From a virus (taxonomy: Duplodnaviria > Caudoviricetes): a DNA stretch of 64,000 bases. Position numbers and translations under genes: made by a program. The first letter of the stretch is position 1; each line of letters starts with the position of its first letter. The notes under the pieces are model-generated. The model worked only from the letters and a program-made list of their open reading frames with translations. It was not told the origin of the DNA and made no database searches. Location: positions 1 through 64,000 of IMG/VR virus record IMGVR_UViG_3300045594_000145; one strand, 5' to 3'. Positions 4,041-61,171 of this stretch are shown piece after piece.

Positions 4041-4523
4041 AAAAATCTTTTCCTCGGTATCTTATCTGTTGGTTGGTAGAACCGCGCAACTCAAGAGTTA
4101 TATCTCTTTTGTCTTCTTCAAAAGGCCCGTCTATTAGAACATCAATAAAATCTAATGCACTTTTTACAATAGGCTCTCTTTCTTTAAGCTGCTCTAAAGT
4201 ATACCCCGTCCAACAATAGATTCTGCGGTCTGGATATTTTTGCTTTACGTGACTAACAACAGTATATGTAAAAGCAATATTATAAGGGGCGAATGGCTCT
4301 CCGCCGAGGACACTAAGATTTCTCTTAATGCCATTAGCGTTTAAAGCCATATCAATCTTATTTAATATATCAGACGGTATTTCTTCTCCGCCATCCGGAT
4401 CCCATGTTTGAGGATTGTGACACCCTTTACAATGAATTGTTAAGGGCATCCCTGAACCCAAATAGAAACACAAACACCATGTCCATCAACAACGTCGTTT
4501 TCCATTAATCCAGCAATGCGCAT
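4039..4523 (-). pseudogene. nrdG: Anaerobic RNR activase (radical SAM), interrupted by a 5-nt insertion
   Basis: ATG 4523 gives MRIAGLMENDVVDGHGVCVSIWVQGCP then TAA; removing TAACA (4438-4442) restores GCPIHCKGCHNP (CxxxCxxC), then LGGEP, DVLIDGPF, RGSTNQ. Confidence 0.8.
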
Positions 4524-4538
4524 CAAACCACCTTCTTT

Positions 4539-6809
4539 CTATAATACTTCATGAGAATTTCTAGCAATTACATCTAACTGCTGTTCTCTTGTTAAGTCAA
4601 TAAACTTAACTGCATATCCACTAACTCTTATTGTAAAGTTAGCATATTCTTCCTTTTCAGGATGCTCCATTGCGTCCTTTAATTTATCTAATCCAAACAC
4701 ATTAACATTCAAATGATGACCCCCACCACTGAAATATCCATCAAGAATATTCACTAAGTTTTCAGATCTTTCTTCTGGAGAGTGACCCAAAGCAGATGGG
4801 TTGATTGTTTGTGTATTTGATATCCCATCAAGCGCATATTCATAAGGTACTTTAGCAACACTATTCAATGAAGCTAATAAACCATCAATTTCTGCGCCAT
4901 AAGATGGGTTAGCGCCTGGAGAGAACGGCGCATAGGCTATCCTTCCATCTGGTAATGCCCCAGTAGCTTTCCCATAAACTACATTCGATGTTATTGTGAG
5001 TATAGAAGTAGTCGGTTCACTATTTCTATATGTATGATTTTTCTTGATTTTTGTAATAAAAGTTTTTAATAGCCAAATTGCAATATCATCCGCGCGATCA
5101 TCATCATTACCATATCTTGGGAAGTCTCCTTCTGTTTGATAATCAATTACTAAGCCATCAGTATTTCTGATAGTCTTTACTTTAGCATATTTAATCGCAC
5201 TCAGTGAATCGACAACGTGCGAAAATCCGGCAATTCCAGTTGCAAAAGTTCTTCTTACATCTGTATCAATTAGAGCCATTTCCGCCGCTTCATAGTAATA
5301 TTTGTCGTGCATATACTGTATAGTATTTAAAATATTAACATATAATCCAGCAAGCCAATCAAGCATAATATCATACTCATGCATTACCTCATTATAGTCT
5401 AAATATTCAGAAGTAATTGGTGCGTACTCTGGCGCTACCTGTAAGGCTTTTCCATTGTCATCGGTGAATTTTTCATCTTTGCCGCCATTGATTGCGTACA
5501 ATAAGCATTTTGCTAAATTTGCTCTTGCCCCAAAGAATTGCATTTCTTTTCCTGTCTGTGTCGCTGAAACGCAACAACAAATACTATAATCATCGCCCCA
5601 GATTGGACGCATTACATCATCATTTTCATATTGAATTGAAGATGTTGCGATAGAAATCTTTGTTGTATATTTTTTAAATGCTCTAGGTAATCTATCACTG
5701 TATAGTACAGTTAAATTTGGTTCTGGAGACGGCCCCATATTCTCTAAGGTATGAAGGAATCTGAAATCATTCTTAGTGACCATATGCCTTCCATCTTGAC
5801 CAATACCACCTACTTCAAGAGTAGCCCAGACAGGATCTCCGGAGAATAGGGCATTATATGACGGAATGCGGGCAAATTTCACCATTCTAAATTTTAGAAC
5901 TAACTGGTCAATTAATTCTTGTGCTTCAGATTCAGTAATCCATCCTTTTTCTAAATCTCTCTGGATATAAATATCTAAAAAAGTAGATATTCTGCCCACA
6001 GACATTGCCGCGCCATTTTGTGTCTTAATTGCAGCTAAATATCCAAAGTATAACCATTGGACAGCTTCCCGTGCAGTCTTAGCTGGTTTAGAAATATCGT
6101 ACCCATAAATAAGCGCCATCGCTTTTATCCCTTCTAAGGCTCTTATCTGATCACTAATTTCTTCCCTCAGACGAATTATATCATCTGTCATGGTGCCATT
6201 GCCGCAATTAGCAAAATCTTCTTGTTTTTTCTCTATTAAGAAATCAATACCATAGAGCGCAATTCTTCTATAATCTCCGACAATGCGACCCCTACCGTAG
6301 GTGTCTGGCAGTCCAGTTACAATATGGCAATGTCTTGCAATTTTCATTTCTGGCGTATATACATCAAAGACACCTTGATTATGAGTCTTATGATATTCAT
6401 TGAAAATTTGATCATACTTTGAATTAATTGTATAACCATAAGTCTTCGCCGCTTCTTGCGCCATCTTAATTCCGCCATAAGGCATAAATGCACGTTTAAG
6501 AGGTTTATCTGTCTGTAGACCGACAATTTTTTCTAGACTTTTGTCAAGATAACCAGGCCCATAGGCTGTGAGACCACTTACGATTTCAGTCTCACAGTCT
6601 AATACGCCGCCATTATTTCTTTCTTGTTTCTGTAAATCTTGCAACTTACTCCAAAGTTTATTAGTTGCATCTGTCGGTTCAGTTAAGAACTCTTCATCAC
6701 CATTATATTGAGTATAATTATGCTGAATGAAATCTCTGACATTAATTTCTGTTTTCCACTTAGAACCTTGGAAAGATGACCATGCTTCATTATAATTATT
6801 TTCAGTCAT
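4539..6809 (-). CDS. pflB: Pyruvate formate-lyase (formate acetyltransferase)
   Basis: 756 aa; [33 protein letters not shown] catalytic Cys pair, C-terminal RVSGYAV glycyl-radical motif. Confidence 0.97.
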
Positions 6810-9021
6810 TTTTCTTCACTCCAACGGCATCGCCAATTTCTTCTCCGCCTAAGTGAACGTATCTATCCTCAATTTCATTAGTTCTTCCATAATTCCAATA
6901 ATGTGAGCCAATATATCCGCAAGTACGTCTAGCTACATTCATTTTAGATTGATCAGTATTTCCGCAATTTGGGCAATACCAACTCATATCTTTAGGATTA
7001 ATTTTTATTTCCCCTTCATATCCGCAAACTTGGCAATAATCTGATTTGGTATTAAGTTCAGCGTACATAATATTATTATATATAAACTTTATCACAGAAA
7101 TTACTGCTGGAATATTTTGTGTTAAATCTGCGCATTCAATATAGCTGATTGCTCCTCCAGGGCTTAATTTTTGGAATTTACTCTCAATACTTAGCTTTGT
7201 AAAAGGATCAATCTTTTCAAAAACTGGAATATGATAGCTATTCGTAATATATTCTCTGTCTTTCCCATCTAATTTAATAAAAGCATCTTCACCAAATCTC
7301 TTCTTGATAGCTTTCGCAAATTTATAAGTAGTTGATTCAATAGGAGAGCCATATAAACTATAATCAATGTCTTCTTCTGATTTCCATTGATTACATTTAT
7401 CATTTAATTTTTTCATTACTTCTAGGCCGAATTTTTCTCCAACTCCATTGTCGCTTTGAGAATTACCCGTCATGTATTTAACACATTCATATAACCCCGC
7501 ATATCCAAGGGATATTGTAGAATAACCATGATGAATTAAATCATGTAACTTTTCTCCTTTATCCAATCTTGCAAATGCGCCAGCTTGCCATAAAATAGGA
7601 GCTACATCAGAAGTAACCTGTTCTAACCTATTAATTCTAACTTGCAATGCTTTATGACATAATTCAGTTCTTTCTTCAAATAACTTCCAGAAAATATTAA
7701 TATCTCTTTCTGAACTCATAGCTAAATCAACTAAATTAATAGTTGTCACGCCCATATTAAATCTTCCATAATATTTATCTTTTTCCGGATTATAATTATT
7801 ACATTTACTATAATTTTTAGTCGTTCTATCTGGAGTTAGGAAAGATCTGCACCCCATACATGGATACACAGCTCCTTTATATTCTAGCATTTTCTTTGCT
7901 GAGATATAATCTGGAACCATCCTCTTAGCAGTACATTTTGCGGCCAATTCTGTTAAATACCAATATGGGCTATCTTCACTAATATTATTTTCTTCTAAAA
8001 CATATAATAACTTAGGAAAAGCCGGAGTGACGTAAACTCCTTTTTCATTCTTCATTCCCTTAATTCTTTGTTTAAGAAATTCTTCGATTAACATTGCTGT
8101 TTCTTTAGTGTATTCTGGATTTTCTGACAAATACATATTAACAGATAAGAATGGCGCTTGACCATTTGTTGTACTCATACTGTTTATTTGATAATTGAAA
8201 GTTTGAACTGAATCTTTTATTTCTTTTTTTGTATCTAAATCTGCAAATTTCTTTGCTTCTTGCTCATTCATGCCTCTATTAATATATTCATTATAATGTT
8301 CTTTCCAAGTCCCACGGATAAATGGAGACAGATGTGAAAGTGAAATGCTACACCCGCCAAATTGCGATGATGCCACGGCAGTAATAATTTGAGTCGCAAC
8401 TGTCATAGCCGTCGATAATCTCTTTTGAGGGTCAATGGTCACGCCATTAATTACAGTACCATTATTCAACATATCATCAAGGTTAATTAAGCAACAATTT
8501 GTTAAAGCCATCTGAGCCATATAATCCATATCATGAACATGAATTATTCCGGCATCATGAGCTTCTCTTACATCTTTTGGCAAAAGAAATCTTCTTGCAA
8601 TATCTGTAGAGGTAATTCCAGCAAGATAATCTCTCTGAGTTGTTACTACATTTGCATCTTTATTTGAATTTTCATGTGTCCAATAATCATTCCTTCCACA
8701 CAATAATTCTAATACTGCGCCATCTGTAATACTTCCTCTTGCGATAGTTCTTGCACTTCTATAATTAATATAGGCTTTTGCCACATCTTTTCTCTTAGTT
8801 GACATTAATCCATTTTCAACAAGATCTTGGATCTGTTCAACTGTTAGTGGCTCCGCAGATTTGTTAGCATTTTCTTCTACATATTCTGCGATGTTATGAG
8901 CCTTTGTGATAGCATACTCGGTCGTTTTGCCATCAACATCTGCAAATGCCGCAAGTACAGCATCTACAATTTTTTGCGGGTTAAATTCTACTTTACGCCC
9001 GTCTCTTTTTACAACGTACAT
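6802..9021 (-). CDS. nrdD: Class III anaerobic ribonucleotide reductase
   Basis: ATP-cone (VVKRDGR), [16 protein letters not shown], Zn-binding CQVC..CPNC, RRTCGY glycyl motif. Confidence 0.97.
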
Positions 9022-37412: not shown

Positions 37413-37849
37413 TATTCTCCCTCATATTCTAATTTAAAATCTTTAAGATTATATTTAGCTTCAATTTTTTGCCAAGAACCACCATAACAAGTTTTAGTGC
37501 TACCACTTAAATTTCTCTTTATCGTGGCTTTTATATTTGACTCATTTTTATCTGGATATAGTTCTTTAAGAACTTTTACTGCTTCGTCGATATCCTTTGC
37601 GGCTATCTTAGTTGTTCCCTTTTTATAGATATATCCAATTTGTACGATAATTTCAGGATTTTTTTGAATATTGCCTAAATAATCAATATGTACTCCTTTT
37701 AAACGACAAAGTTCCATACTTTTGTCAAATTTATCTGCAACTTCATTTCCAGTCATCTTGCAAATCTTTGCCATGTATCCCACGGAAGCCGCAGAGGAAA
37801 TAAGCTTTACGGTTTTGTTGTCATAGTTGATCACACCCAAAAATTTCAT
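37412..37849 (-). CDS. Hypothetical protein
   Basis: Coupled ORF. Confidence 0.55.
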   Translation of the reverse strand: MKFLGVINYDNKTVKLISSAASVGYMAKICKMTGNEVADKFDKSMELCRLKGVHIDYLGNIQKNPEIIVQIGYIYKKGTTKIAAKDIDEAVKVLKELYPDKNESNIKATIKRNLSGSTKTCYGGSWQKIEAKYNLKDFKLEYEGE

Positions 37850-38096
37850 AATATTTATTCACTATCCTTTCTAATTCCTGCTCTTTGTCCAAGATTTCTT
37901 TTTGAAAATCTGTGCCATTACTGAATACTTCTGGATTAGTTAATTCTTCTTTTAAAACCTTATATGTAAGGAGTTTCATTGCATATCGAGATAATTCTTC
38001 TATTTTCTGTTCTCCATTCTCAATAATATACATTTGATTATGAGCAATGGGGAAATTATGATTACACCAATTGTCTCTAAATTCTTTTGCGTTCAT
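37821..38096 (-). CDS. Hypothetical protein
   Basis: ATG 38096 after AAGGAG. Confidence 0.55.
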   Translation of the reverse strand: MNAKEFRDNWCNHNFPIAHNQMYIIENGEQKIEELSRYAMKLLTYKVLKEELTNPEVFSNGTDFQKEILDKEQELERIVNKYYEIFGCDQL

Positions 38097-38189
38097 ATCT
38101 ATAATCTCCTTATCTATTATTATTATATCATAGAAATTAAAAATCGTCAATAAAAAAGGGCAGTGCGGTTTCACGCTGTCCTCTTTATA

Positions 38190-38489
38190 TTATCTAAAAT
38201 GATTTGTCGTTACAATCCTACCAATATCTTTATTATAGCAACTTTCACAGAGAGTTCTTCCATCAAAATCACTATGTTTTACGTGACCAGGCTCTATTAA
38301 TCTTTTACAGTCCTTACAAGTGCATTGTGTATTTGTATCGGTCGGCGGGACATAATAATTTCCAGAACTTGGTGAAGCGGGTGAAGAGAAGTAGCTCCAC
38401 AATAAAACTACTCCAAAAAATAATAATAAAAGCCAAACAAGCGGGTTCTTAAAAATTTCTATAAGTATCATACCTAAGAACGTAACCAT
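38190..38489 (-). CDS. Small membrane protein with Zn finger
   Basis: N-terminal hydrophobic helix, CKDC...CESC. Confidence 0.6.
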   Translation of the reverse strand: MVTFLGMILIEIFKNPLVWLLLLFFGVVLLWSYFSSPASPSSGNYYVPPTDTNTQCTCKDCKRLIEPGHVKHSDFDGRTLCESCYNKDIGRIVTTNHFR

Positions 38490-38541
38490 ATTTAAATTCT
38501 CCTTCTTTATAATTATATTATATCACAAAAATTAAAAAATG

Positions 38542-38823
38542 TCAAAAAACATGTATCTCAAAATCTTCTAGTATATTAGTAAGTTCTATGGCTTCTTTAT
38601 TATCAGAAGTCAAGATCCTATATATGTGAGATATCGCCGTTTCATTTTCTCTTTTACTTATGATCTTCAAGATTTCTCTATATTCTTCTGGAATTTGCAC
38701 AAGAGTTATCTCTTTATTGTCAAGTTTTTCTAAATATTCTAAAATATTTATTGTTCGATCATAACTTCCATATAATTGTTTGCTCATAGCCACTGCGATT
38801 GACTCTTTATCTTCTATTTCCAT
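38542..38823 (-). CDS. Hypothetical protein
   Basis: ORF with GAGGAG RBS. Confidence 0.55.
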   Translation of the reverse strand: MEIEDKESIAVAMSKQLYGSYDRTINILEYLEKLDNKEITLVQIPEEYREILKIISKRENETAISHIYRILTSDNKEAIELTNILEDFEIHVF

Positions 38824-38844
38824 ATAATCTCCTCTCTAGGATAA

Positions 38845-38878
38845 AAAAATAACTGCAAGACTCTATCATGCAGTTATT
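38845..38878 (-). terminator. Terminator of the large noncoding transcript
   Basis: AATAACTGCA...TGCAGTTATT hairpin plus U-tract. Confidence 0.7.
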
Positions 38879-38964
38879 AATACATAGGTTATAGCCTGTA
38901 TTCAGAATTGCACTGAATGTTATCTACTAAGACAGACAGTTTAGCAGGATTATCGCACCTGCTA

Positions 38965-39560
38965 GGCGACTTAGGCTGAGAAAATTGACCTTCATTTACT
39001 TACATCCTTGCTCGGTTGGCCGCGCAATTTCACACAACTGTTTTACAATTGTAGTAAGTATCGACACTGGTTTTGTGAAAACCAGCAAACTCTTACTATA
39101 TCCTCAGATAACTTTCCTTTCCTAACAGCTCCCCTTGGAAGGGTTCGATAGCTCCCGCCACCTAAGTTAAATTAGTAATTGTACTTGTTTGCCCTATACC
39201 TTGCGAGCTAGTAGCATCTGTATGTTACAACAGAATAAGTCGATATGTCAGAATATAGTCGAGCACGCTTTTGCTTTTGTTAGAAAACTTTTCAATATCC
39301 AATTGATTTTTCATATTTTCATAAAAGTTTCGCGTAATAACGATTTATTAGTCGATGTGGTGCTCGTTCGGTATCCCACTCTTTTGGAGTGGATCCAACC
39401 AACACCGCCTTCCTTTCGCGTCACCTACTCAGTTTATTTGCTGTTTACAAGTGATGTTTCAATCGACTCGTTGCAAATAATGAAGCCCGCACTTAAGTTT
39501 GACGAACTTTGCACGAACAACCTCTATCCGTAATCGTATATTTCTATACTTATTTACCGG
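38965..39560 (-). ncRNA. Large structured ncRNA, ROOL-like (boundaries approximate)
   Basis: No sense ORF between promoter 39872-39900 and terminator 38845; many hairpins; GAGTAGG, CTCCAAAAGAG, GCAAAAG, GCTCGCAAG and 3' GAAGG..TCTCAGCCT segments resemble ROOL as I recall it; not verified with a covariance model. Confidence 0.55.
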
Positions 39561-39730
39561 CTACGAACCGATAACTGCTCTAATAACTATAAAATCTGCA
39601 CGAAGTTATAGCTAGCACTACGCATAATATAGAGTCTTTCTGTGGAAGCATTACACTCGCAAAGCACGTTGAACTTTGCTTTGGCCCCATTACTGGGGTT
39701 ATCCTTGGCTACGGCTACGAAGACTAGCCG

Positions 39731-39803
39731 CTGAGAATTTAGCTTATTGACCGAAGTCATAATTTCTAGGCAATACCACGTAGAGGTATCTCAATCATTG
39801 CCC
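39731..39803 (-). ncRNA. HDV-like ribozyme A
   Basis: P1 GGGCAAU/AUUGCCU (G.U), P2 UGAGA/UCUCA, P3 ACC/GGU, L3 UCUACGU, P1.1 CU/AG, P4 UUCG hairpin, J4/2 GCUAA. Confidence 0.8.
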
Positions 39804-39896
39804 GACTGGCTTGCGCCAGCTTCTTTTGTCGTTTCTATTAATAAATTAAGTTTTCCTTAACTTATATAATAATTATATCATATTTTTTAAAATGAG

Positions 39897-40526
39897 TCAA
39901 GAAATTTTTGAAAGAATTAATTCACTTTCCGGAAGTGTTTCTACCCACTCGCAAAAAATTCTCCACTCTGGTAAACGATGGTTTTTTCTTTGAGAATAAA
40001 TAGTCTTTAATTCTCTATAGTTAGTAACTATGCGCGCAGTCAAACGGAAACCCGCAGGATTAGAATATAGAATCTCTAAATATTTCTCATTTAACTCTCT
40101 TCCATAAAGTTCTTTTTGTTCTTTTGTTTCAGCTAAATCTGATTTTTGAAGAAGATCTTCATATTTAGCAATTTTGTCTCTCATAATTTCTATGATGCGC
40201 GGATCAACTTCTTTCATATAACTTGTATCAAGATCAAAAGAAGTAATTCTGTGCATTGTAGACTGAGAGGAAACAAAATTTGCAAAACGGTATCTTTCAA
40301 ATTCTACCCACGCCTTATTGGAAAAGCAAAGATCGAACATTACGGTTATTCCAGTTAAAAATTGGTCTTCACCGCATCCTTTAGGAGAATTTGCAAGAGC
40401 TTTAACCGTCTTAGTAATCTCTGGGGTTGCTTTTGAAAGGTCTGTTAAGTAAGAAAATTTAGAGCCTTGAATAGATTCTTCTAATCCGTAAACATGGACA
40501 TTTGAAATTATATCATCAATTTCCAT
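39897..40526 (-). CDS. ThyX-like (flavin-dependent thymidylate synthase-like) protein
   Basis: EFERYR..SSQSTMH, TNYREL..QRKNHRLPEW. Confidence 0.6.
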   Translation of the reverse strand: MEIDDIISNVHVYGLEESIQGSKFSYLTDLSKATPEITKTVKALANSPKGCGEDQFLTGITVMFDLCFSNKAWVEFERYRFANFVSSQSTMHRITSFDLDTSYMKEVDPRIIEIMRDKIAKYEDLLQKSDLAETKEQKELYGRELNEKYLEILYSNPAGFRLTARIVTNYRELKTIYSQRKNHRLPEWRIFCEWVETLPESELILSKIS

Positions 40527-40527
40527 A

Positions 40528-40968
40528 TTACTTCTTTGCCCCCCGAGACTTCAGTCCAAGGCTTCCAAGAGGATATCTACACCATGGTATAAGATTTTGA
40601 TACATTCCTTCTGTGCCATAGAAAACAGCGATTGGTCTATTGGTATCACTTTTAATTTCCAACATTTCGCCGGTCACGTTCAAATAAACTCTTTCAATGA
40701 AGGCTGGCGCAGGGGTTAAATGGTCACATTGGAACTGTAAGAAATCTTTCTCTTGCTTATTTAGTAAAGAATATTCTTCACATTCAGATTCTGCCCATCT
40801 TTTCTGAACATCCCTACAAGACTCACTTACGCCAGGTTCGGGGTAAAAAGAACAATCACTACAGTTACAAGTGTTGCAGTCAACTAGTTTTCCATCTTTT
40901 AGTGCGATTATTTTATTTTCGAGGGCAAATTGAGCTAAAGTTTCAAGATTTTTTTCTTTGTTGTTCAT
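40528..40968 (-). CDS. Hypothetical protein
   Basis: Cys-rich N-terminus. Confidence 0.55.
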   Translation of the reverse strand: MNNKEKNLETLAQFALENKIIALKDGKLVDCNTCNCSDCSFYPEPGVSESCRDVQKRWAESECEEYSLLNKQEKDFLQFQCDHLTPAPAFIERVYLNVTGEMLEIKSDTNRPIAVFYGTEGMYQNLIPWCRYPLGSLGLKSRGAKK

Positions 40969-40998
40969 AATAATAATTACCTTTCTATGGGTTAATTA

Positions 40999-41071
40999 GT
41001 GCGTCCAGAAGGGGACGATCCTTCGACTGGCCCTTATCAGGAGCCTGTTTTTACCGTTGAACTATACGAAT
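40999..41071 (-). tRNA. Degenerate tRNA-Ile(GAT)
   Basis: GGCTC CTGATAA GGGCC anticodon arm; acceptor stem mispaired. Confidence 0.45.
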
Positions 41072-41117
41072 ATAAGAATCTTTAATAAGAATAACATATT
41101 TTTTAAAAATTGTCAAG

Positions 41118-41190
41118 TGGACACTTTTGGAGTCGAACCAAATTCCAAGGCTCTTCAAACCTCTGCTATAACCGTATCAGCTAAGTGTCC
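41118..41190 (-). tRNA. tRNA-Phe(GAA)
   Basis: Full cloverleaf, loop TTGAAGA. Confidence 0.85.
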
Positions 41191-41195
41191 ATAAA

Positions 41196-41256
41196 TTTTG
41201 GTATCATGGCTCGAACATGAGATTGCCGACCGTTTTACCTACTAAACTATACCAAA
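41196..41256 (-). ncRNA. tRNA-like RNA lacking an anticodon arm (#1)
   Basis: Acceptor TTTGGTA/TACCAAA, D arm GTTT/AAAC, 11-nt linker, T arm TCATG TTCGAGC CATGA. Confidence 0.65.
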
Positions 41257-41307
41257 ATATGCTATTTTTATTTTTAAATACAGAATACTGCTATTGAATG
41301 GGAAGAA

Positions 41308-41691
41308 TTAGTCTTTTTCATGCGCCTTGTTATACTCATCTTCAATCTTAACCAGAACCGCTCCAAGACATTGTGGATATAAATATACACGAATGGCAAC
41401 ATCGCAATATTCTGCCCCTTTTTTGATGAGGACACTTCCATCCATTTCAAATTCCTTCAATACATCAAATAACAAATCTAGATTATGGCATAGATATTCT
41501 TCTGCTTGATATGTGTTGAAAGTATAAGAACCAGAACTATTGCCTGTGATACTATCTTCATTTATTACTTCATCGTTTAAATATTCTTCAAGGTCATTAA
41601 AAGTATCATAATCCTCAAAATCAATATTATCTTTTACATACTCTAAGATATCATTCTTTACTGCCTGTTCATAATCATAAGTTTCTGACAT
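41308..41691 (-). CDS. Acidic hypothetical protein (family with 52594 and 54502)
   Basis: DSITGNSSGSY..AEEYLCHNLDLL..DVAIR. Confidence 0.65.
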   Translation of the reverse strand: MSETYDYEQAVKNDILEYVKDNIDFEDYDTFNDLEEYLNDEVINEDSITGNSSGSYTFNTYQAEEYLCHNLDLLFDVLKEFEMDGSVLIKKGAEYCDVAIRVYLYPQCLGAVLVKIEDEYNKAHEKD

Positions 41692-41752
41692 AAGACTCTC
41701 CTGTCTATCATAAACCATAAACTTTGTCAAACTATTTCATACGATATTTTAG

Positions 41753-41824
41753 TATCCCCACAGAGATTCGAACTCTGATTGTAGGTTTAGAAGACCTATG
41801 CACTCTCCTTTGTCCTGTGAGGAT
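41753..41824 (-). tRNA. tRNA-Arg(TCT)
   Basis: TAGGT CTTCTAA ACCTA. Confidence 0.8.
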
Positions 41825-41828
41825 ATAA

Positions 41829-41901
41829 GGGTGTCATTCAAGAATCGAACTTGAATAAGATGTTTCACAGACATCCACGCTACCTTTGCGCCAATGACAC
41901 C
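41829..41901 (-). tRNA. tRNA-His(GTG)
   Basis: GATGT CTGTGAA ACATC; encoded G-1. Confidence 0.85.
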
Positions 41902-41904
41902 AGA

Positions 41905-41978
41905 TGGAGGACGGAGTGAGAGTCGGACTCACGATCTAGGGGTTGCGGCCCTATGCCTTACCGCTTGGCTAACCGTTC
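41905..41978 (-). tRNA. tRNA-Cys(GCA)
   Basis: TAGGG CCGCAAC CCCTA; CCA encoded. Confidence 0.8.
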
Positions 41979-42014
41979 TAGTTTTGAATTAACTACTTTC
42001 TTAAGAAAGTATAG

Positions 42015-42085
42015 TATACGCACTAAGAATTGAACTTGGATTTAGCGCTTATCAGGCGCTCGTTCTACCATTGAACTATGCGTAT
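42015..42085 (-). tRNA. tRNA-Ile(GAT)
   Basis: AGCGC CTGATAA GCGCT. Confidence 0.8.
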
Positions 42086-42091
42086 ATATAA

Positions 42092-42164
42092 TGTTCTGAT
42101 TGGGACTTGAACCCAAAATCTTATTCTTGAGAGGAATACGATTTAACCATTCGTCTACCGCAGC
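42092..42164 (-). tRNA. tRNA-Glu(CTC), degenerate acceptor
   Basis: TATTC CTCTCAA GAATA; good T arm. Confidence 0.55.
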
Positions 42165-42170
42165 AAATAG

Positions 42171-42259
42171 CGCAAACTGCTAGCTTCGATCTCGCGCTAC
42201 GAATAATCGTAGGACGGTTTAGCGAACCGTTGGTTTCAACCAGACTCACCCAAGTTTGC
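42171..42259 (-). tRNA. tRNA-Ser(GCT)
   Basis: ACGGT TCGCTAA ACCGT, long variable arm. Confidence 0.8.
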
Positions 42260-42263
42260 ATAG

Positions 42264-42345
42264 TCGGTTGCGGGAGACTTGAACTCCCACGTCTTTCAAC
42301 ATTAGCTTCTAAGGCTAACGCGTCTGCCAGTTCCGCCAGCAACCG
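42264..42345 (-). tRNA. tRNA-Leu(TAG)
   Basis: TTAGC CTTAGAA GCTAA. Confidence 0.85.
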
Positions 42346-42351
42346 ATAACT

Positions 42352-42423
42352 TGTGGAGTAATGAGATCGAACCGATATTATCTGTTTGGTAAACAGACTT
42401 ACTAGCCGTTGTAAGACCTCCAC
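42352..42423 (-). tRNA. tRNA-like gene with ACC anticodon (Gly-type), weak T stem
   Basis: TCTGT TTACCAA ACAGA; acceptor GTGGAG/CTCCAC. Confidence 0.5.
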
Positions 42424-42436
42424 AATTTTGAAGCAG

Positions 42437-42507
42437 TCTCCGCAGAATGAATCGAACATTCGTCTCTCGGTCCCAGGCCGAGTGGTCTACCATTAACCTA
42501 CACAGAG
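42437..42507 (-). tRNA. tRNA-Pro(TGG)
   Basis: CTCGG CCTGGGA CCGAG. Confidence 0.8.
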
Positions 42508-42511
42508 ATAG

Positions 42512-42585
42512 TGGAAGATAAAGAGATCGAATCTTTAGTCTATCGGTTATGGGCCGAGTGCTTTATCCTATTAAGCTAATCTTCC
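42512..42585 (-). tRNA. tRNA-Met/Ile2(CAT)
   Basis: TCGG CCCATAA CCGA. Confidence 0.75.
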
Positions 42586-42621
42586 AATAATTGCATATTT
42601 TATAGCGTTATGCTACGCTAA

Positions 42622-42694
42622 GGCCAAGTAGTGGAATTGAACCACTAACCTCCTACTTACGAAGTAGTTGCTCTACCGATTGAGCTAAATTGGC
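42622..42694 (-). tRNA. tRNA-Thr(CGT)
   Basis: CTAC TTCGTAA GTAG. Confidence 0.8.
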
Positions 42695-42705
42695 AATTTG
42701 ATAAG

Positions 42706-42785
42706 TCCTTGAAGTGAGGTTCGAACTCACACGCTCTCGCAGTGGATTTTAAGTCCACTTTGTCTGCCAGTTGCAACATCCAAGG
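42706..42785 (-). tRNA. tRNA-Leu(TAA)
   Basis: GTGGA CTTAAAA TCCAC. Confidence 0.85.
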
Positions 42786-42790
42786 AGTAG

Positions 42791-42864
42791 TGCGCGACGT
42801 AGAACTCGAATCTACAATAACCTATTTTTGAGACAGGCTCCTCTGCCAGTTGGGACAGCCGCGC
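42791..42864 (-). tRNA. tRNA-Leu(CAA), short variable loop
   Basis: CCTGT CTCAAAA ATAGG. Confidence 0.75.
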
Positions 42865-43023
42865 AAGATTTTAAATTTATTTAATTCTTTCTTTGTTTAT
42901 GTATATATTATATCATTATATTAGGAGATTGTCAAGCTTTCTCTTTTAAAAATGAGGACAAAAGACGGAAGAATTACCTACGTCTTTCTGGTATCGTTCC
43001 TACACTTGGCAGGACAATGAAAT

Positions 43024-43079
43024 TAGAGGCAGCCAGACTCGAACTGACATATTGACTCTTACCCTTGAGCTATACCTCT
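43024..43079 (-). ncRNA. tRNA-like RNA lacking an anticodon arm (#2)
   Basis: Acceptor AGAGGTA/TGCCTCT, D arm GCTC/GAGT, 6-nt linker CAATAT, T arm GTCAG TTCGAGT CTGGC. Confidence 0.7.
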
Positions 43080-43186
43080 TCTGTTTGATCGTGCACAATC
43101 CTCCACAGATGGAGTGCCGCTTAGTAAATAAAAGAACAAGCAGGCTTATTCAGTCAGATGGCACTGCCATCTATTACATGCGGCAA

Positions 43187-43306
43187 TTTGTTCGGTAAGG
43201 ATTTGCACCTTACAAGCATAGTCATTGCTTTTTCAACTTTAATTAGAGTGATAGCTCTATGCGGTGCTCACTGGACACCCGTGTTTACCTATTCCGCCAC
43301 GAACAA
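43187..43306 (-). ncRNA. Expanded tRNA-like RNA (120 nt)
   Basis: Acceptor TTGTTCG/CGAACAA, GGAATAGGTA D-loop, GGTG/CACC arm with 9-nt loop, long GCATAG/CTATGC arm, GTAAGG TGCAAAT CCTTAC T-like arm. Confidence 0.6.
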
Positions 43307-43311
43307 TTTAA

Positions 43312-43530
43312 TTACTTACTCAATTTAATATCTTCAATCTGGGCACGAGTTTCAAGCACATATAAATACTGCCCCATGATTGATGCCTGCTTTCTCAATA
43401 AATCAATTGGGCATGTAGGTGTAAACTCTAACTTTCCCGCATCATATTTAACAAGCATCTTATGTAATTTCTGGTACTTATCATCTAAATCTTTATATTC
43501 CTTCACAAATCTAACTTTGTAATCTTCCAT
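43312..43530 (-). CDS. Small conserved phage protein (crAss001_48-like)
   Basis: DYKVRFVKEY..LLRKQASIMGQYLYVLETR. Confidence 0.65.
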   Translation of the reverse strand: MEDYKVRFVKEYKDLDDKYQKLHKMLVKYDAGKLEFTPTCPIDLLRKQASIMGQYLYVLETRAQIEDIKLSK

Positions 43531-43544
43531 GTTATTCTCCTTTC

Positions 43545-43925
43545 TTATAGTCCTAATTCCTTTGGTGTATAATCACATTCTCTTTTCATGCCAATGAACT
43601 TAGTCCCTCTATCAAAAGGAAATAGAAGAATATTTTCTCCGCCTTCTGTTTCAATATCAATGTTCTCACGATTGGCGTTATATAGTTTGCAAATTGAAAT
43701 TATTTTTCTATCTGCTTGACTGATTACGGTTTTTAGATAATCATGTTCTTCCTGCGTTAAGATTGGTTCTGGCTTAATAGGCTCCCATGCATTAGGCGAT
43801 ATTTCTGTTAATTTACAGATACCATTATTTCTGCCAATCAAGCAATTATCACATCTATCTTGTTTTTCACAACAATTCCGTATTGTTTCGATAGCTTCAT
43901 TCAATTTTTTGATTTCATTTTCCAT
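43545..43925 (-). CDS. Hypothetical protein
   Basis: Cys-rich N-terminus, ends YTPKELGL; resembles 40528 ORF. Confidence 0.55.
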   Translation of the reverse strand: MENEIKKLNEAIETIRNCCEKQDRCDNCLIGRNNGICKLTEISPNAWEPIKPEPILTQEEHDYLKTVISQADRKIISICKLYNANRENIDIETEGGENILLFPFDRGTKFIGMKRECDYTPKELGL

Positions 43926-44097
43926 ATTATTTTCCTCTTTCAATATTATCTTATCATTTTTAAATTAATTGTCTATAATTTGTAACCATTTTCGCAGTTA
44001 GCCTAAAGCCCGTTTTGCTAGATACCGATGGCCGAAGCCATAGAGTCCTACCATCAAACGATGACCTAATATTAAGTGGAGGTGTGGGGCAATGCTC

Positions 44098-44727
44098 CTA
44101 TAAATATTCAAAATGATAACCCAAATAGCTTGTTTTGTTATTATATCCAGTAAGAGACTCACTTATCTTTTTCCCTACATTATCCACTTTTTTGGTTCTT
44201 GTATAGTTGTTATCTATCAACCACTGAGCACATTCAACTACAGAGGAAAACTCTTTTTCTAATTCTTTAACTTTAATTGGTTTTGCGTGAATTTCTGCAC
44301 TACTTTTTATCGGAATATTATTTTGAATTAATATATCATGAACGCTATCTGTAGATATTCCTAATTTCGTGGCTGTTTTTCTTATATTCTGTTCTTCTTT
44401 ATAAGTTTTAATAACAAGATCTCTATCAATATAAGGTTTTCCATCCCCGCCTTTTGTTGCGTTATACCCATTTCCATAAGAGCCGTATCGACTAATCCAA
44501 TAGATTTCTCTTTCTTCAGCTTCTGAATCTTCACATTGTTCTACCTCTTCAACTGAAAAATTTTCAACACCATATTTGTTCATGGCAGAATAAAGAGGCC
44601 GGTGTTCCATCCGACATTTCTTATAATCTTGACAATGTTCTTTAAATCTTTTTTCTATCGTGCCCAGAGTTTTTCCGATATAAATTTTGCCATTAATTGA
44701 ATTTGTTATTTTATAAATATATGCCAC
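44098..44727 (-). CDS. Free-standing GIY-YIG endonuclease within tRNA cluster
   Basis: YIYKITN..IYIGKT..RFKEH, REIYWI, GYN. Confidence 0.88.
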   Translation of the reverse strand: MAYIYKITNSINGKIYIGKTLGTIEKRFKEHCQDYKKCRMEHRPLYSAMNKYGVENFSVEEVEQCEDSEAEEREIYWISRYGSYGNGYNATKGGDGKPYIDRDLVIKTYKEEQNIRKTATKLGISTDSVHDILIQNNIPIKSSAEIHAKPIKVKELEKEFSSVVECAQWLIDNNYTRTKKVDNVGKKISESLTGYNNKTSYLGYHFEYL

Positions 44728-44833
44728 GATGACTAACTCCTTTTCTATAAAAACTCTATAGAAATTGGTAAAGTAATATCACAATAATTCTTGTAATCTT
44801 GCTCGCCTACCAATTACGACACATGCCGAATAG

Positions 44834-44904
44834 TAGTGATTATAGGTAATGCTCCTATGTCTACCGCTTATCAGGCGATTGCTCTACTTTTGAGCTAAAT
44901 CACT
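44834..44904 (-). tRNA. tRNA-Ile(GAT), non-canonical T loop
   Basis: ATCGC CTGATAA GCGGT; T loop AGCATTA. Confidence 0.7.
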
Positions 44905-44908
44905 AAAG

Positions 44909-44979
44909 AGTTCTATATCGGGATTGAACCGATGCTATCTGCTTGGAGGGCAGATGTACTACCATTATACGAATAGAAC
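44909..44979 (-). tRNA. tRNA-Gly(TCC)
   Basis: TCTGC CCTCCAA GCAGA. Confidence 0.8.
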
Positions 44980-44980
44980 A

Positions 44981-45054
44981 TGGCTGGCTCTAAGTGAATT
45001 GAACACTTATACTCTCCTTAACAGGGAGGAGTTCTACCATTGAACTAAGAGCCA
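44981..45054 (-). tRNA. tRNA-Asn(GTT)
   Basis: CTCC CTGTTAA GGAG; CCA encoded. Confidence 0.8.
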
Positions 45055-45175
45055 ATATTAAGCACTATCGCAGTACCCGCGTCCCTTGCTATTATTGATA
45101 GCGCCGGAGACAGCTGATTTTTTAAACGTCGCGACCGAATCATCCTAGATGTTAGACGGTCTATTCCAGACGTAG

Positions 45176-45246
45176 CACAGGAGCAAGGATTTGAACCTCG
45201 ATAAGCAGTTTTGGAGACTGCCGTCCTGCCGTTGGACGACTCCTAT
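45176..45246 (-). tRNA. tRNA-Trp(CCA)
   Basis: GCAGT CTCCAAA ACTGC. Confidence 0.85.
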
Positions 45247-45251
45247 ATAAG

Positions 45252-45326
45252 CCTTCTCTGAGAGAGTTGAACTCTCAACCTCTTCGTTCGTAGCGAAGCC
45301 GTCTATCCAATTGACTATAAGAGAAG
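45252..45326 (-). tRNA. tRNA-Arg(ACG)
   Basis: CTTCG CTACGAA CGAAG. Confidence 0.75.
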
Positions 45327-45332
45327 ATAATA

Positions 45333-45403
45333 AGCCGGCTGGGAGAGTTGAACTCACATTTACAGCTTACAAGGCAGTTGGTCTACCGTTAATCTAAGCC
45401 GGC
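45333..45403 (-). tRNA. tRNA-Thr(TGT)
   Basis: Loop CTTGTAA, acceptor GCCGGCT/AGCCGGC. Confidence 0.8.
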
Positions 45404-45407
45404 ATAG

Positions 45408-45480
45408 CACGCTCATAGAGATTTGAACTCTAATTATGCGCTTAGAAGGCGCATGCCCTATCCAATTAGACTATAAGCGT
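45408..45480 (-). tRNA. tRNA-Arg(TCT)
   Basis: TGCGC CTTCTAA GCGCA. Confidence 0.85.
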
Positions 45481-45484
45481 ATAG

Positions 45485-45557
45485 TTGCGTGAGGCCGGAA
45501 TTGCACCGGCGACCTCTTGGTTATGAGCCAAGCGAGCTACTACTGCTCCACTCCGCG
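45485..45557 (-). tRNA. Initiator tRNA-fMet(CAT)
   Basis: 5' CGCGG with C1:A72 mismatch, loop CTCATAA. Confidence 0.85.
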
Positions 45558-58863: not shown

Positions 58864-59157
58864 TTAGAACCAGAATGGAAAATTGAAAATTGAATCAAAG
58901 ATATCGGTTGGCTTGTCATCAATGCGCGTCTCAACAGAGAACCAGGTGCCGTAATCCTTGATGAACTGATTCTTCAATTCATTGTAGTGATCGATTGCGT
59001 CTTCAGCAGACTTCTGCGCCTTCTCAACCTCAGCCGCACGCGCCTTCTTTTCTGCGTTCTTCTTCTTTGTGAGTTCTGCGCTCTTGGCTGCTTCTACTTC
59101 AGCCTTCTTTGCATCCTCGATGTTGTCAAATGTCTTTGTTCCTACTAAATACTTCAT
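58864..59157 (-). CDS. Hypothetical coiled-coil protein
   Basis: ATG 59157 after AAGGAG. Confidence 0.65.
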   Translation of the reverse strand: MKYLVGTKTFDNIEDAKKAEVEAAKSAELTKKKNAEKKARAAEVEKAQKSAEDAIDHYNELKNQFIKDYGTWFSVETRIDDKPTDIFDSIFNFPFWF

Positions 59158-59289
59158 GTGTTTTCTCCTTTGCGGCCCTTGCTGCCGTCTTACTACTGCG
59201 TCTATCACGCAGGAAAAACCTGCCGAAGCAGGTTGTATGCGTAAATGATATATACGTAGAATTATCCCAGTGGATTATCATTTACGACT

Positions 59290-59374
59290 AGAGAATTGGT
59301 TCTTCTACTTCGGCGGCGAACCGCTTCCTTGAATTAGTAGACTGCGCCGCATAGAGGCTTCTCTTATGCAGTCC
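59290..59374 (-). ncRNA. HDV-like ribozyme B
   Basis: P1 GGACUGC/GCAGUCU, P2 AGAGAA/UUCUCU, P3 GCC/GGC, L3 UCUAUGC, long P4, J4/2 CCAA; P1.1 partial. Confidence 0.7.
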
Positions 59375-59544
59375 TAATCAAATCATAATACACATACTTC
59401 TCAGGTATGCCGAGGCTTATTTGCACTGGTCATGACTCCACGCTTATTCGCCATTTCTGCCGCAACCTACTTTCATCGCGATGTCCAGTAAGTTCTTTTG
59501 GTGTAACCATCCTAACAGTAAGGACTGGTAAGATTTGATTGTGA

Positions 59545-59610
59545 TAGATTTAGTTCTCTCGCCCAAGAGCAAGTCCAGCCGCACCCCGTGGAGGTATCTA
59601 ACTTGCGGCC
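59545..59610 (-). ncRNA. HDV-like ribozyme C
   Basis: P1 GGCCGC/GCGGCU, P2 UAGAU/AUCUA, P3 ACC/GGU, L3 UCCACGG, P1.1 CC/GG, P4 CUUGCUC/GGGCGAG, J4/2 CUAA. Confidence 0.8.
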
Positions 59611-59859
59611 ACCCGCTTATCTTATTGAAAGCGGTAGAAAGTCAGTTTTGCTCTTTGAAAAGCTAAGTCAACCTGCCGCCGCAGGATTTAAAGCGTACGC
59701 AACTCTTCTTTTTGGTTAAGAGAGGTATTGACGAGAGAACCGCCCCACGTCTGGGGACTTAGTGGCTTAAGCTTTGACTTCGTACAGTGCTACACTAACT
59801 GAAGTCTAGGCGTTAGTATGTCATTACATTGCAGTAATGGATACTTAATCCTTGTATTT

Positions 59860-59932
59860 TGGGTACGTCTGGAATCGAACCAAAACCTTCTCCCCATACA
59901 AGAGGAGATGCACAGCCACGCACTGTATACCG
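59860..59932 (-). tRNA. Degenerate tRNA-like element (TGT loop)
   Basis: T arm TTTGG TTCGATT CCAGA, TCTCCTC/GGGGAGA stem, GGTAT/GTACC acceptor-like pairing. Confidence 0.45.
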
Positions 59933-59959
59933 TCAGGGTCTTTCACCAAAGGATTATTT

Positions 59960-60030
59960 GTAGAACTTTGTTTAGTCTGGAGCTACCAAATTGTCCACTC
60001 TCGCCACGGGGAGGCGTCTACTATGAGAGC
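59960..60030 (-). ncRNA. HDV-like ribozyme D
   Basis: P1 GCUCUC/GAGAGU, P2 GUAGA/UCUAC, P3 GCC/GGC, L3 UCCCCGU, P1.1 CC/GG, J4/2 CAAA. Confidence 0.78.
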
Positions 60031-60086
60031 ATATAGATTGCGCGGTTACTTACTTGGGCGCGCCAATGAACCGTCTGCCGCAATCT

Positions 60087-60140
60087 TGATGTATTAGTTG
60101 GATATCCAGACACGCCACGAGGAGGCTACATCATGTGTCC
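60087..60140 (-). ncRNA. HDV-like ribozyme E (minimal, 54 nt)
   Basis: P1 GGACAC/GUGUCU, P2 UGAUGUA/UACAUCA, P3 GCC/GGC, L3 UCCUCGU, P1.1 CC/GG, J4/2 CUAA. Confidence 0.85.
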
Positions 60141-60608
60141 ATCCCCTTGCCTAGGAGCTACCTAGACAGGAGTTATATGCTTTCCCTAAGCAGGGGCCGA
60201 AGCCCAAGGGGTTAGTTCGCGTGGGAAACTACCAAGGTGCTAAATCCGATCGGTTGCGCGCAATTTTCCTGACACTCTTTAGACTCGCGAGGAAAATTTC
60301 TAATTCTACGAGCAAGCTTTTCTCTTCTTTATACTTGGTGAGCGTTCATCCAAGCGGCGTTTACTTCTTTATCCTCGCATAAACACCAAAACGCGAGTCG
60401 GCCGCAGGCCGTTTATCCTTTAATTTTACCACTAGAGAAGTAGGAATATGGGTATGTTCACTCGCGGAACATACAAGTAGCGCTTTGCTCTAATCACGGG
60501 ATAGAGGTACGAGATCGGCAGTTCCTGTTTACCGCAAAGGTGGAGGTTTAGGGGTGCGTGAACCTGTTTCTTTCAATTATAACGCCCGAAGTTCTAAGAG
60601 GCAGCTTA

Positions 60609-61001: not shown

Positions 61002-61057
61002 TGATGATTCTCAGTAGAAGAGCAGTTGCGCCGCGAGCAGGCGATCATCATGCAACC
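61002..61057 (-). ncRNA. HDV-like ribozyme F (minimal)
   Basis: P1 GGUUGC/GCAACU, P2 UGAUGAU/AUCAUCA, P3 GCC/GGC, L3 UGCUCGC, compensatory P1.1 GC/GC, J4/2 CUGA. Confidence 0.75.
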
Positions 61058-61109
61058 ATATGGGGAGCCGTCTGGCAAACGACTCCCAGCAAAAGAGAGA
61101 GTATACAAA

Positions 61110-61171
61110 CGAACTTTTAGAACCCGAAGGGGTAGCCGCATTGCCACGTCAAGGCAAGTTCGATAATGCGG
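61110..61171 (-). ncRNA. HDV-like ribozyme G (variant)
   Basis: P1 CCGCAUU/AAUGCGG (C-G first pair), P2 CGAACUU/AAGUUCG, P3 GCC/GGC, L3 UUGACGU, UUCG P4, J4/2 CUAA. Confidence 0.62.

Follow-up and report, generated by a model that had tools for sequence, protein, structure and literature searches.

GOLLD RNA, reportedly described by Weinberg et al. in 2009, is among the largest noncoding RNAs of bacteria and phages, and its cage structure was solved in 2025. Its traits are a conserved 3′ domain, a variable 5′ domain, a location in transfer RNA (tRNA) arrays, and the formation of cages, which have been visualized by cryo-electron microscopy for the env-38 and S. agalactiae GOLLDs (PMC12286853; PMC12990946). 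In the published structures, GOLLD builds closed 12- to 14-mer cages, and the env-38 RNA is described as lying “downstream of Met-tRNA” (PMC12286853; PMC12990946). A position near phage tRNAs is a context that GOLLD has in common with ROOL, another large ornate RNA (PMC5737381). Phages also carry ribozymes resembling that of hepatitis delta virus (HDV); 526 phage HDV-like ribozymes of unknown function and without a tRNA neighbor have been reported, 493 of them in noncoding regions (PMC10879173). Here, we analyze a locus that appears to join GOLLD with such a ribozyme. It lies on the minus strand of a 64,000-nucleotide (nt) stretch of phage DNA (positions 1 to 64,000 of IMG/VR record IMGVR_UViG_3300045594_000145; termed the window herein), where 39900-38843 forms a unit free of open reading frames (ORFs) and bounded by a sigma-A-type promoter and a terminator; all features of the unit given below are on this strand. 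We consider it reasonably probable that the unit is a phage GOLLD gene with a built-in 5′ processing device, namely, an HDV-like ribozyme that would set the 5′ end of the RNA. Both parts belong to known families, and as far as we can tell, their combination and the replacement of a tRNA by a ribozyme are new: no paper was found that links GOLLD with HDV-like ribozymes or that reports a GOLLD-ribozyme fusion or end processing.

The conserved 3′ domain of GOLLD is located at 39410-38973. There, the Rfam covariance model RF02032 aligned over all of its positions (1 to 416 of 416) with 97.1 bits and an E value of 7e-26 in a permissive search of the region (38700-40000, E ≤ 10), and the same match had an E value of 1.4e-27 in a search of the genome. 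The aligned sequence includes the A-rich linker, the AAAGCAAAAG landmark (39277-39268), and the long-range pseudoknot, 9 of whose 10 pairs are kept in the RF02032 alignment, one of them as G·U. An nhmmer search showed the 3′ domain to be similar to 17 other GOLLD loci. The predicted RNA of 831 nt (39803-38973) and its phage location near tRNAs are consistent with the ∼700 to 830 nt and the setting expected for the family. No match to ROOL or OLE was obtained, either in the window at the gathering score or in 38700-40000 at an E value of ≤10. Hence, of the three families against which the original prediction had proposed to compare the locus, only GOLLD was recovered, and the resemblance to ROOL that it had seen in the 3′ ∼600 nt was replaced by the GOLLD match. 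Its broader expectation, a giant ornate RNA of a phage close to a tRNA cluster, was borne out, with 20 tRNA genes upstream on the same strand. Together with the 5′ domain described below, these matches identify the locus as a GOLLD RNA that is predicted to account for 39730-38973.

Between the 3′ domain and the ribozyme lies a divergent GOLLD 5′ domain (39730-39411), composed of a conserved start (39730-39627), a variable middle (39626-39561), and a conserved end (39560-39411). Two covariance models, R1 and R2, were built from ten relatives only (alignments A2 and A3, with the sequence of this phage excluded), and each had its full-length top match in the 64-kb window at the expected end of this region: R1 at 39737-39627 (25.9 bits, E = 9e-5) and R2 at 39560-39408 (35.4 bits, E = 6e-6), with the next-best match at ≤12 bits. 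The two matches are collinear, R1 adjoining the ribozyme and R2 the Rfam 3′ domain, and this order and abutment indicate that 39730-39411 is a divergent GOLLD 5′ domain; the part at 39730-39560, previously set apart as extra structured sequence, therefore belongs to it. Strain variants lend modest support to the predicted hairpins of this domain. In a contig from a river metatranscriptome, the paired bases C39695 and G39688 are both deleted, with the loss of one predicted hairpin pair, and in the next hairpin, A39675G and U39663C turn an A-U pair into G-C, so that both hairpins are retained in the variants. This phage and the river strain show 14 differences, 10 of which fall within 84 nt (39612-39695), a local hypervariable patch of the 5′ domain. 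The 438 nt of the 3′ domain contain a single difference, and the ribozyme has none as far as the contig covers it.

The HDV-like ribozyme, predicted from a structural descriptor, a weak Rfam match, and covariation in its family, occupies 39803-39731, with the predicted cut between C39804 and G39803. Its elements follow the order P1-P2-P3-L3-P3′-P1′-P1.1-P4-J4/2-P2′ of the HDV-like nested double pseudoknot. P1 (39803-39797/39774-39768) has 7 of 7 pairs, the first being a G39803·U39768 wobble; P2 (39794-39789/39736-39731) has 6 of 6; and P3 (39787-39785/39777-39775, ACC/GGU) has 3 of 3. The 7-nt L3 (39784-39778) reads UCUACGU, both pairs of P1.1 (C39783-G39766 and U39782-A39767) form between CU and AG, P4 (within 39765-39743) has seven pairs and a UUCG loop, and J4/2 (CUAAAU) opens with the predicted catalytic C39742. 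The nested double pseudoknot thus begins exactly where the original prediction had placed an HDV-like fold with a CU/AG P1.1, about 60 nt past the start. A strict structural descriptor matched once in the 109-kb genome, not at all when the catalytic C was replaced, and not once over 100 dinucleotide-shuffled genomes. The Rfam family HDV-F-prausnitzii (RF02682) matched weakly at 39803-39738 (18.8 bits, E = 1), with a model that cannot score P2 or P1.1 and that gives 24 bits to a clear family member in another phage contig (L025).

The 13-nt P3/L3 core together with AG and GCUAA was found in 22 other viral and 119 metagenome contigs. The full fold is formed by 20 of the 22 viral and 95 of the 122 metagenomic core matches (116 of 145 overall), with 17 + 32 distinct P1 sequences and 19 + 36 distinct P2 sequences. 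A shared core combined with widely differing P1 and P2 helices marks the copy studied here as a regular member of a covarying ribozyme family, and it belongs to the non-tRNA-associated group of phage ribozymes (PMC10879173).

The place of the ribozyme is best seen by comparison with the other GOLLDs, for which we used 84 other loci from IMG/VR. Their same-strand upstream tRNAs form two clusters, 0 to 17 nt and 414 to 693 nt before the AAAGCAAAAG landmark; the first corresponds to the known linker tRNAs, and the second, mostly tRNA-Met, lies at the 5′ edge of the RNA. Here, the 3′ end of the ribozyme lies 453 nt before the landmark, and the tRNA 3′ ends of the relatives lie 436, 443, 465, 466, 487, and 492 nt before it. 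The relatives carry another tRNA 10 to 115 nt past the 3′ domain, where the present locus has a tail and a terminator. The array of 20 phage tRNA genes (41117-45557, minus strand) is located 1.3 to 5.7 kb upstream, so that 1.3 kb separate this GOLLD gene from the array. The roles of RNase P and RNase Z in tRNA end processing are established. Since the relatives are embedded in tRNA arrays and flanked by tRNAs, tRNA processing would free both of their ends, and we infer that host tRNA-processing enzymes set the ends of tRNA-flanked GOLLDs. The tRNA array of one of these relatives (L087) includes a tmRNA gene (L087:3883-4286, 128 bits) that lies ∼1 kb downstream of the GOLLD.

An HDV-like descriptor scan of 215 kb around the 84 GOLLD loci, run with decoy controls, returned one clean case and no decoy matches. 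This case, L038 (IMG/VR contig 3300033463_005665), belongs to the same GOLLD subclade and has the layout promoter-leader-GOLLD-hairpin-HDV-like ribozyme-ORF, with its own promoter and no upstream tRNA. Its ribozyme (4228-4283, minus strand) has a P1 of 6 bp, a P2 of 8 bp, the L3 sequence UCCACGU, a CC/GG P1.1, and almost no P4; the cut would fall ∼40 nt past the 3′ domain, which ends near 4326, and a ribosome-binding site and ORF come next. The two loci thus resemble each other in their GOLLD subclade, in having a promoter of their own and a hairpin next to the cleavage site, and in the HDV-like ribozyme at one end of the RNA, whereas the ribozyme of L038 is at the 3′ end, heads the downstream mRNA, and is unrelated in sequence to the one described here. 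L038 is an independent case of a predicted ribozyme-defined GOLLD end. That flanking tRNAs, a 3′ ribozyme, and a 5′ ribozyme all occur in one subclade is the main support for the processing model.

An alignment of the promoter and leader with those of L038 was tried and was unconvincing. Three contigs hold both the ribozyme core and GOLLD, and the two elements are not adjacent in them. The layout differs in a 266-kb phage contig (L025:2137-5100), where a ribozyme of the same type (2364-2427) stands at the opening of a ∼3-kb ORF-free stretch that contains two unusually long tRNA-like matches (102 and 124 nt), a tRNA-Met, a GOLLD of 275 bits, and then a tRNA array. A blastn search of the stretch against 50,697 phage records gave no match. 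Relatives of the 209-amino-acid protein encoded upstream of the promoter were found at three loci, none of which had a GOLLD or ribozyme.

The predicted promoter (39900-39872) is a consensus match only, in which the −35 box TTGACT (39900-39895) and the −10 box TATAAT (39877-39872) agree with the consensus at 11 of 12 positions and are separated by 17 nt with a TG; it would place the transcription start at ∼39865. With a loose threshold, a promoter scan gave 6 promoter-like sites versus 6.2 expected. The upstream ORF of 209 amino acids (40526-39897, minus strand) has its stop codon (39899-39897) inside the −35 box, and no terminator was found between this ORF and the promoter or ribozyme, so that readthrough from upstream genes may enter the unit. 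The leader of ∼62 nt (39866-39804), which the predicted cut would discard, folds into two hairpins (−17.6 kcal/mol), the second of which (39820-39806, GCAA loop) ends 2 nt ahead of the predicted cleavage site. ARAGORN found no tRNA in the leader or anywhere in 38800-40000, the closest being at 41117. The longest sense ORF between 39900 and 38845 has at most 57 codons' worth of amino acids, and the next ORF downstream starts with an ATG at 38823 behind a strong ribosome-binding site. At the other end of the unit, the 3′ tail (38972-38843) consists of three small hairpins and an intrinsic terminator, with a stem at 38875-38869/38857-38851 followed by seven U's (38849-38843); its AU-rich stem and 11-nt loop caused a simple terminator scan to overlook it. 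The G+C content is 0.39 to 0.41 across the unit versus ∼0.30 in the flanks, and the 831-nt RNA folds better than its dinucleotide shuffles (z = −3.8; none of 20 equal). The promoter at 39900-39872, the terminator at 38878-38845, the dense structure, and the lack of a sense ORF in 39900-38845 had all been named in the original prediction and were recovered.

At 39805, 39857, 39869, and 39888, DNA contigs from a manure run break off or become divergent. In related phage strains, the RNA cassette seems to be joined to different upstream genes, with mosaic junctions at the promoter and leader. A DNA joint from 39036 to 39805 (run X2) has 26 letters on its short side and is probably an assembly or strain artifact.

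Public sequencing data contain the stretch in 20 runs from 13 studies (manure, wastewater, sludge, river, and soil), six RNA libraries among them. Contigs of two metatranscriptome studies cover 39050-39796 (X15) and 38979-39757 (X19, the river sample), and one RNA-library contig bridges the junction between ribozyme and 5′ domain, with 66 nt on the ribozyme side, suggesting that the assembled RNA species includes the ribozyme; such contigs cannot show transcript ends, and DNA may be present in RNA libraries. The X15 and X19 contigs stop at differing places (39796 and 39757) and therefore do not map the 5′ end. Neither run gave coverage of the flanks (37500-38978 and 39797-41200), which does not count as evidence. 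On its other side, the X19 contig ends at 38979 directly against the Illumina adapter. A discrete RNA 3′ end may be indicated here, ∼130 nt short of the terminator and ∼6 nt before the GOLLD model ends, although such an end would cut the last GOLLD hairpin.

In the mechanism that we propose, RNA polymerase would make a primary transcript of ∼1.02 kb, which readthrough from upstream may join. In the folded ribozyme, C39742 would catalyze the attack of the 2′-OH of C39804 on the adjacent phosphate. The leader or upstream mRNA would depart with a 2′,3′-cyclic phosphate behind a protective hairpin, and the GOLLD RNA would begin at G39803 with a 5′-OH buried in P1 and with the still attached ribozyme serving as a compact cap. 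Counted from 39803 through the last position of the 3′ domain, the product would have 831 nt, the usual size of a GOLLD. This gene stands apart from the tRNA array, and the ribozyme would do the 5′ job without host enzymes. For cage assembly, a uniform end may be of importance.

Several points weigh against this proposal. At Rfam curated thresholds, the window gives tRNAs only, and the GOLLD score lies below the curated cut-off of 150 bits. The nearest GOLLD relatives stay below it as well (L068, 104 bits; L071, 99; L053, 96; L072, 92.5; L109, 80; and L064, 79), and L087, with the same 5′-domain architecture as these relatives, reaches 204.9 bits; the cut-off thus misses a phage subclade, and the low score is no argument against membership. 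The ribozyme score, in turn, is below the RF02682 cut-off of 44 bits. An nhmmer profile built from relatives only misses the window at an E value of <1e-3, the 5′ domain being divergent, and gives only weak collinear matches when the search is limited to the region. In a MAFFT alignment of 39730-39411 with six relatives (A1), RNAalifold found 38 of 60 pairs to be compensatory; the sequence of this phage satisfies 30 of the 60 consensus pairs, compared to 16 to 25 for slid controls and 55 to 60 for the relatives, and A1 was for this reason set aside as evidence for its 5′ domain. The four strain variants have no change inside the ribozyme and hence show no covariation within the lineage. The 5′ fusion was not found in the 84 other GOLLD loci or in 141 other ribozyme-core loci, so that selection for the fusion rests on one lineage. 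Self-cleavage and a 5′-OH end at 39803 are deduced from the sequence, the RNA data being assembled contigs. With the promoter as the sole source of transcripts, the benefit of shedding a 62-nt leader is not obvious. Finally, a 5′-OH end can attract RNase J1 in Bacillus subtilis, as with the glmS ribozyme product; we assume that the P1 helix protects the 5′-OH.

An alternative that we regard as unlikely is that the ribozyme mainly serves the RNA upstream, ending readthrough transcripts behind a stable hairpin with a 2′,3′-cyclic phosphate as a substitute for a terminator, with its position at GOLLD being secondary. The missing terminator between the 209-amino-acid ORF and the ribozyme and the overlap of the ORF stop with the −35 box are in line with such a role, and so is L038, where the ribozyme separates GOLLD from a downstream ORF. 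The hairpin abutting the cleavage site points in the same direction. Among 80 nonredundant metagenomic loci with the ACC-UCUACGU-GGU core (from L114-L232), a strong GC-rich hairpin ends ≤4 nt from the cleavage site in 47, often followed by a terminator-like UUU, and a tRNA, the published theta context, precedes the ribozyme in 6. An abutting hairpin seems to be the rule for this ribozyme class and may mark 3′-end formation of the upstream RNA. However, a near-consensus promoter stands between the ORF and the hairpin, the ribozyme sits exactly where related GOLLDs have their upstream tRNA, and it is still joined to GOLLD in an RNA-library contig. Moreover, a single cut makes both ends, so that service to the upstream RNA would be a second role rather than a true alternative to processing of GOLLD.

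It is rather improbable, in our view, that the HDV-like fold is inactive in vivo, as a structural module of the 5′ domain or a decaying remnant, and that the functional RNA is the full primary transcript. Cleavage at 39803 predicted from sequence alone, the lack of covariation within the lineage, the uniqueness of the fusion in the sampled data, and the Rfam ribozyme score below the cut-off would fit such a fold. Yet a decaying copy would be expected to carry mismatches, and C39742, the G·U first pair, P1.1, the perfect 7-bp P1, and the 6-bp P2 are all intact; the ribozyme is also identical in strains from several habitats, while variation is seen in its neighbors, the adjacent 5′ domain and the upstream ORF. 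The repeated use of this ribozyme class in the same phage, in which descriptors find further HDV-like ribozymes at 61057-61002, 60140-60087, and 59610-59545 (minus strand), makes it more plausible that the copy at the GOLLD gene is active. That the RNA belongs to the ROOL family and carries extra 5′ sequence is very improbable, since ROOL shares with it only the context of a large ornate RNA near phage tRNAs (PMC5737381), does not match 38700-40000 at an E value of ≤10 where GOLLD matches over its whole model (E = 7e-26), and leaves a 5′ part that matches GOLLD 5′ domains. We give equally little credit to chance, under which the unit would be an AT-rich spacer between genes whose hairpins are fortuitous and which encodes no functional RNA. 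AT-rich DNA often contains sequences that match promoter and terminator consensuses (6 promoter-like sites found at the loose threshold, 6.2 expected), but the model E values (7e-26, 9e-5, and 6e-6), the absence of descriptor matches in shuffles, and the recovery of the stretch in RNA-library contigs of two studies and in 20 runs of 13 studies speak against it.

The further ribozymes of this phage lie in or near a second ORF-free stretch of ∼1.45 kb (59157-60608, plus 61002-61171, minus strand). It also contains a weak Rfam HDV match (60030-59961) and a tRNA-Thr (59932-59860) located between two ribozymes, and no Rfam family explains the remainder of 59157-60608 and 61002-61171. The phage contig has 108,945 bp with direct terminal repeats and encodes NrdD, a PFL-like glycyl-radical enzyme, a split polymerase III alpha subunit, DnaB, GyrA, and PhoH. 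Its polymerase shares only ∼35% identity with the polymerases of SPbeta-like, Enterococcus, and gut phages. In 4539-9021 (minus strand), a full-length PFL-like glycyl-radical enzyme of 756 amino acids lies beside the anaerobic ribonucleotide reductase NrdD, a combination suggestive of an anaerobic host. The host of this uncultivated phage is probably an anaerobic member of the Bacillota.

If GOLLD processing by the ribozyme holds, this locus and L038 offer a first hint on GOLLD biogenesis. The three ways of setting an end that would coexist within one subclade argue that defined ends are under selection. The locus also suggests a plausible job for one member of the phage HDV-like ribozymes filed as not associated with tRNAs and of unknown function. 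For experimental work, it would supply a GOLLD construct that processes itself and has a natural, precisely defined 5′ end, as predicted here, and it shows that the Rfam cut-off for GOLLD misses a whole phage subclade. A more far-reaching idea, to which we attach a low probability, is that ribozymes and tRNAs are interchangeable end-setting modules of GOLLD and that the RNA works only after exact excision, with the chemistry of its ends being important. If it is true, defined ends could serve the closure of the multimeric cage, the 5′-OH and cyclic-phosphate ends could be substrates of phage RNA ligase or repair enzymes, and the tRNAs flanking ordinary GOLLDs would be part of GOLLD biogenesis, not mere neighbors. 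Large RNAs yet to be discovered would then have their ends marked by some of the orphan phage HDV-like ribozymes without an associated tRNA, which number in the hundreds.

In comparison with known systems, the ribozyme resembles the F. prausnitzii type of HDV-like ribozymes (RF02682) and the phage theta ribozymes in its ACC-UCUACGU-GGU core, nested double pseudoknot, G·U pair at the cleavage site, catalytic C opening J4/2 (CUAA), and phage setting. The characterized theta ribozymes are defined by an adjoining tRNA, whereas the nearest tRNA here is at 41117; in addition, this ribozyme has a real P4 of seven pairs with a UUCG loop instead of a minimal one, and it heads a giant structured RNA. 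ROOL (RF03087) is alike as a large ornate phage RNA near tRNAs that forms cages, but it matches the locus in neither sequence nor structure. With GOLLD (RF02032), the locus shares the full-length 3′-domain match with its pseudoknot, a size of ∼830 nt, a phage-borne gene on the same strand as the tRNA array, and the variable 5′ domain common to a subclade of phage GOLLDs. It differs in its score below the cut-off, as does the whole subclade, in its position outside the tRNA array, in its own promoter and terminator, and in an HDV-like ribozyme in place of the relatives' tRNA. The closest counterparts are the tRNA-flanked GOLLDs L068, L097, L109, L064, L071, L053, and L087, which have the same 5′-domain architecture and nearly the same distance between landmark and upstream element (453 nt here versus 436 to 492 nt). 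Their ends would be set by tRNA-processing enzymes, whereas here, the 5′ end would be set by the predicted self-cleavage and the 3′ side by a terminator.

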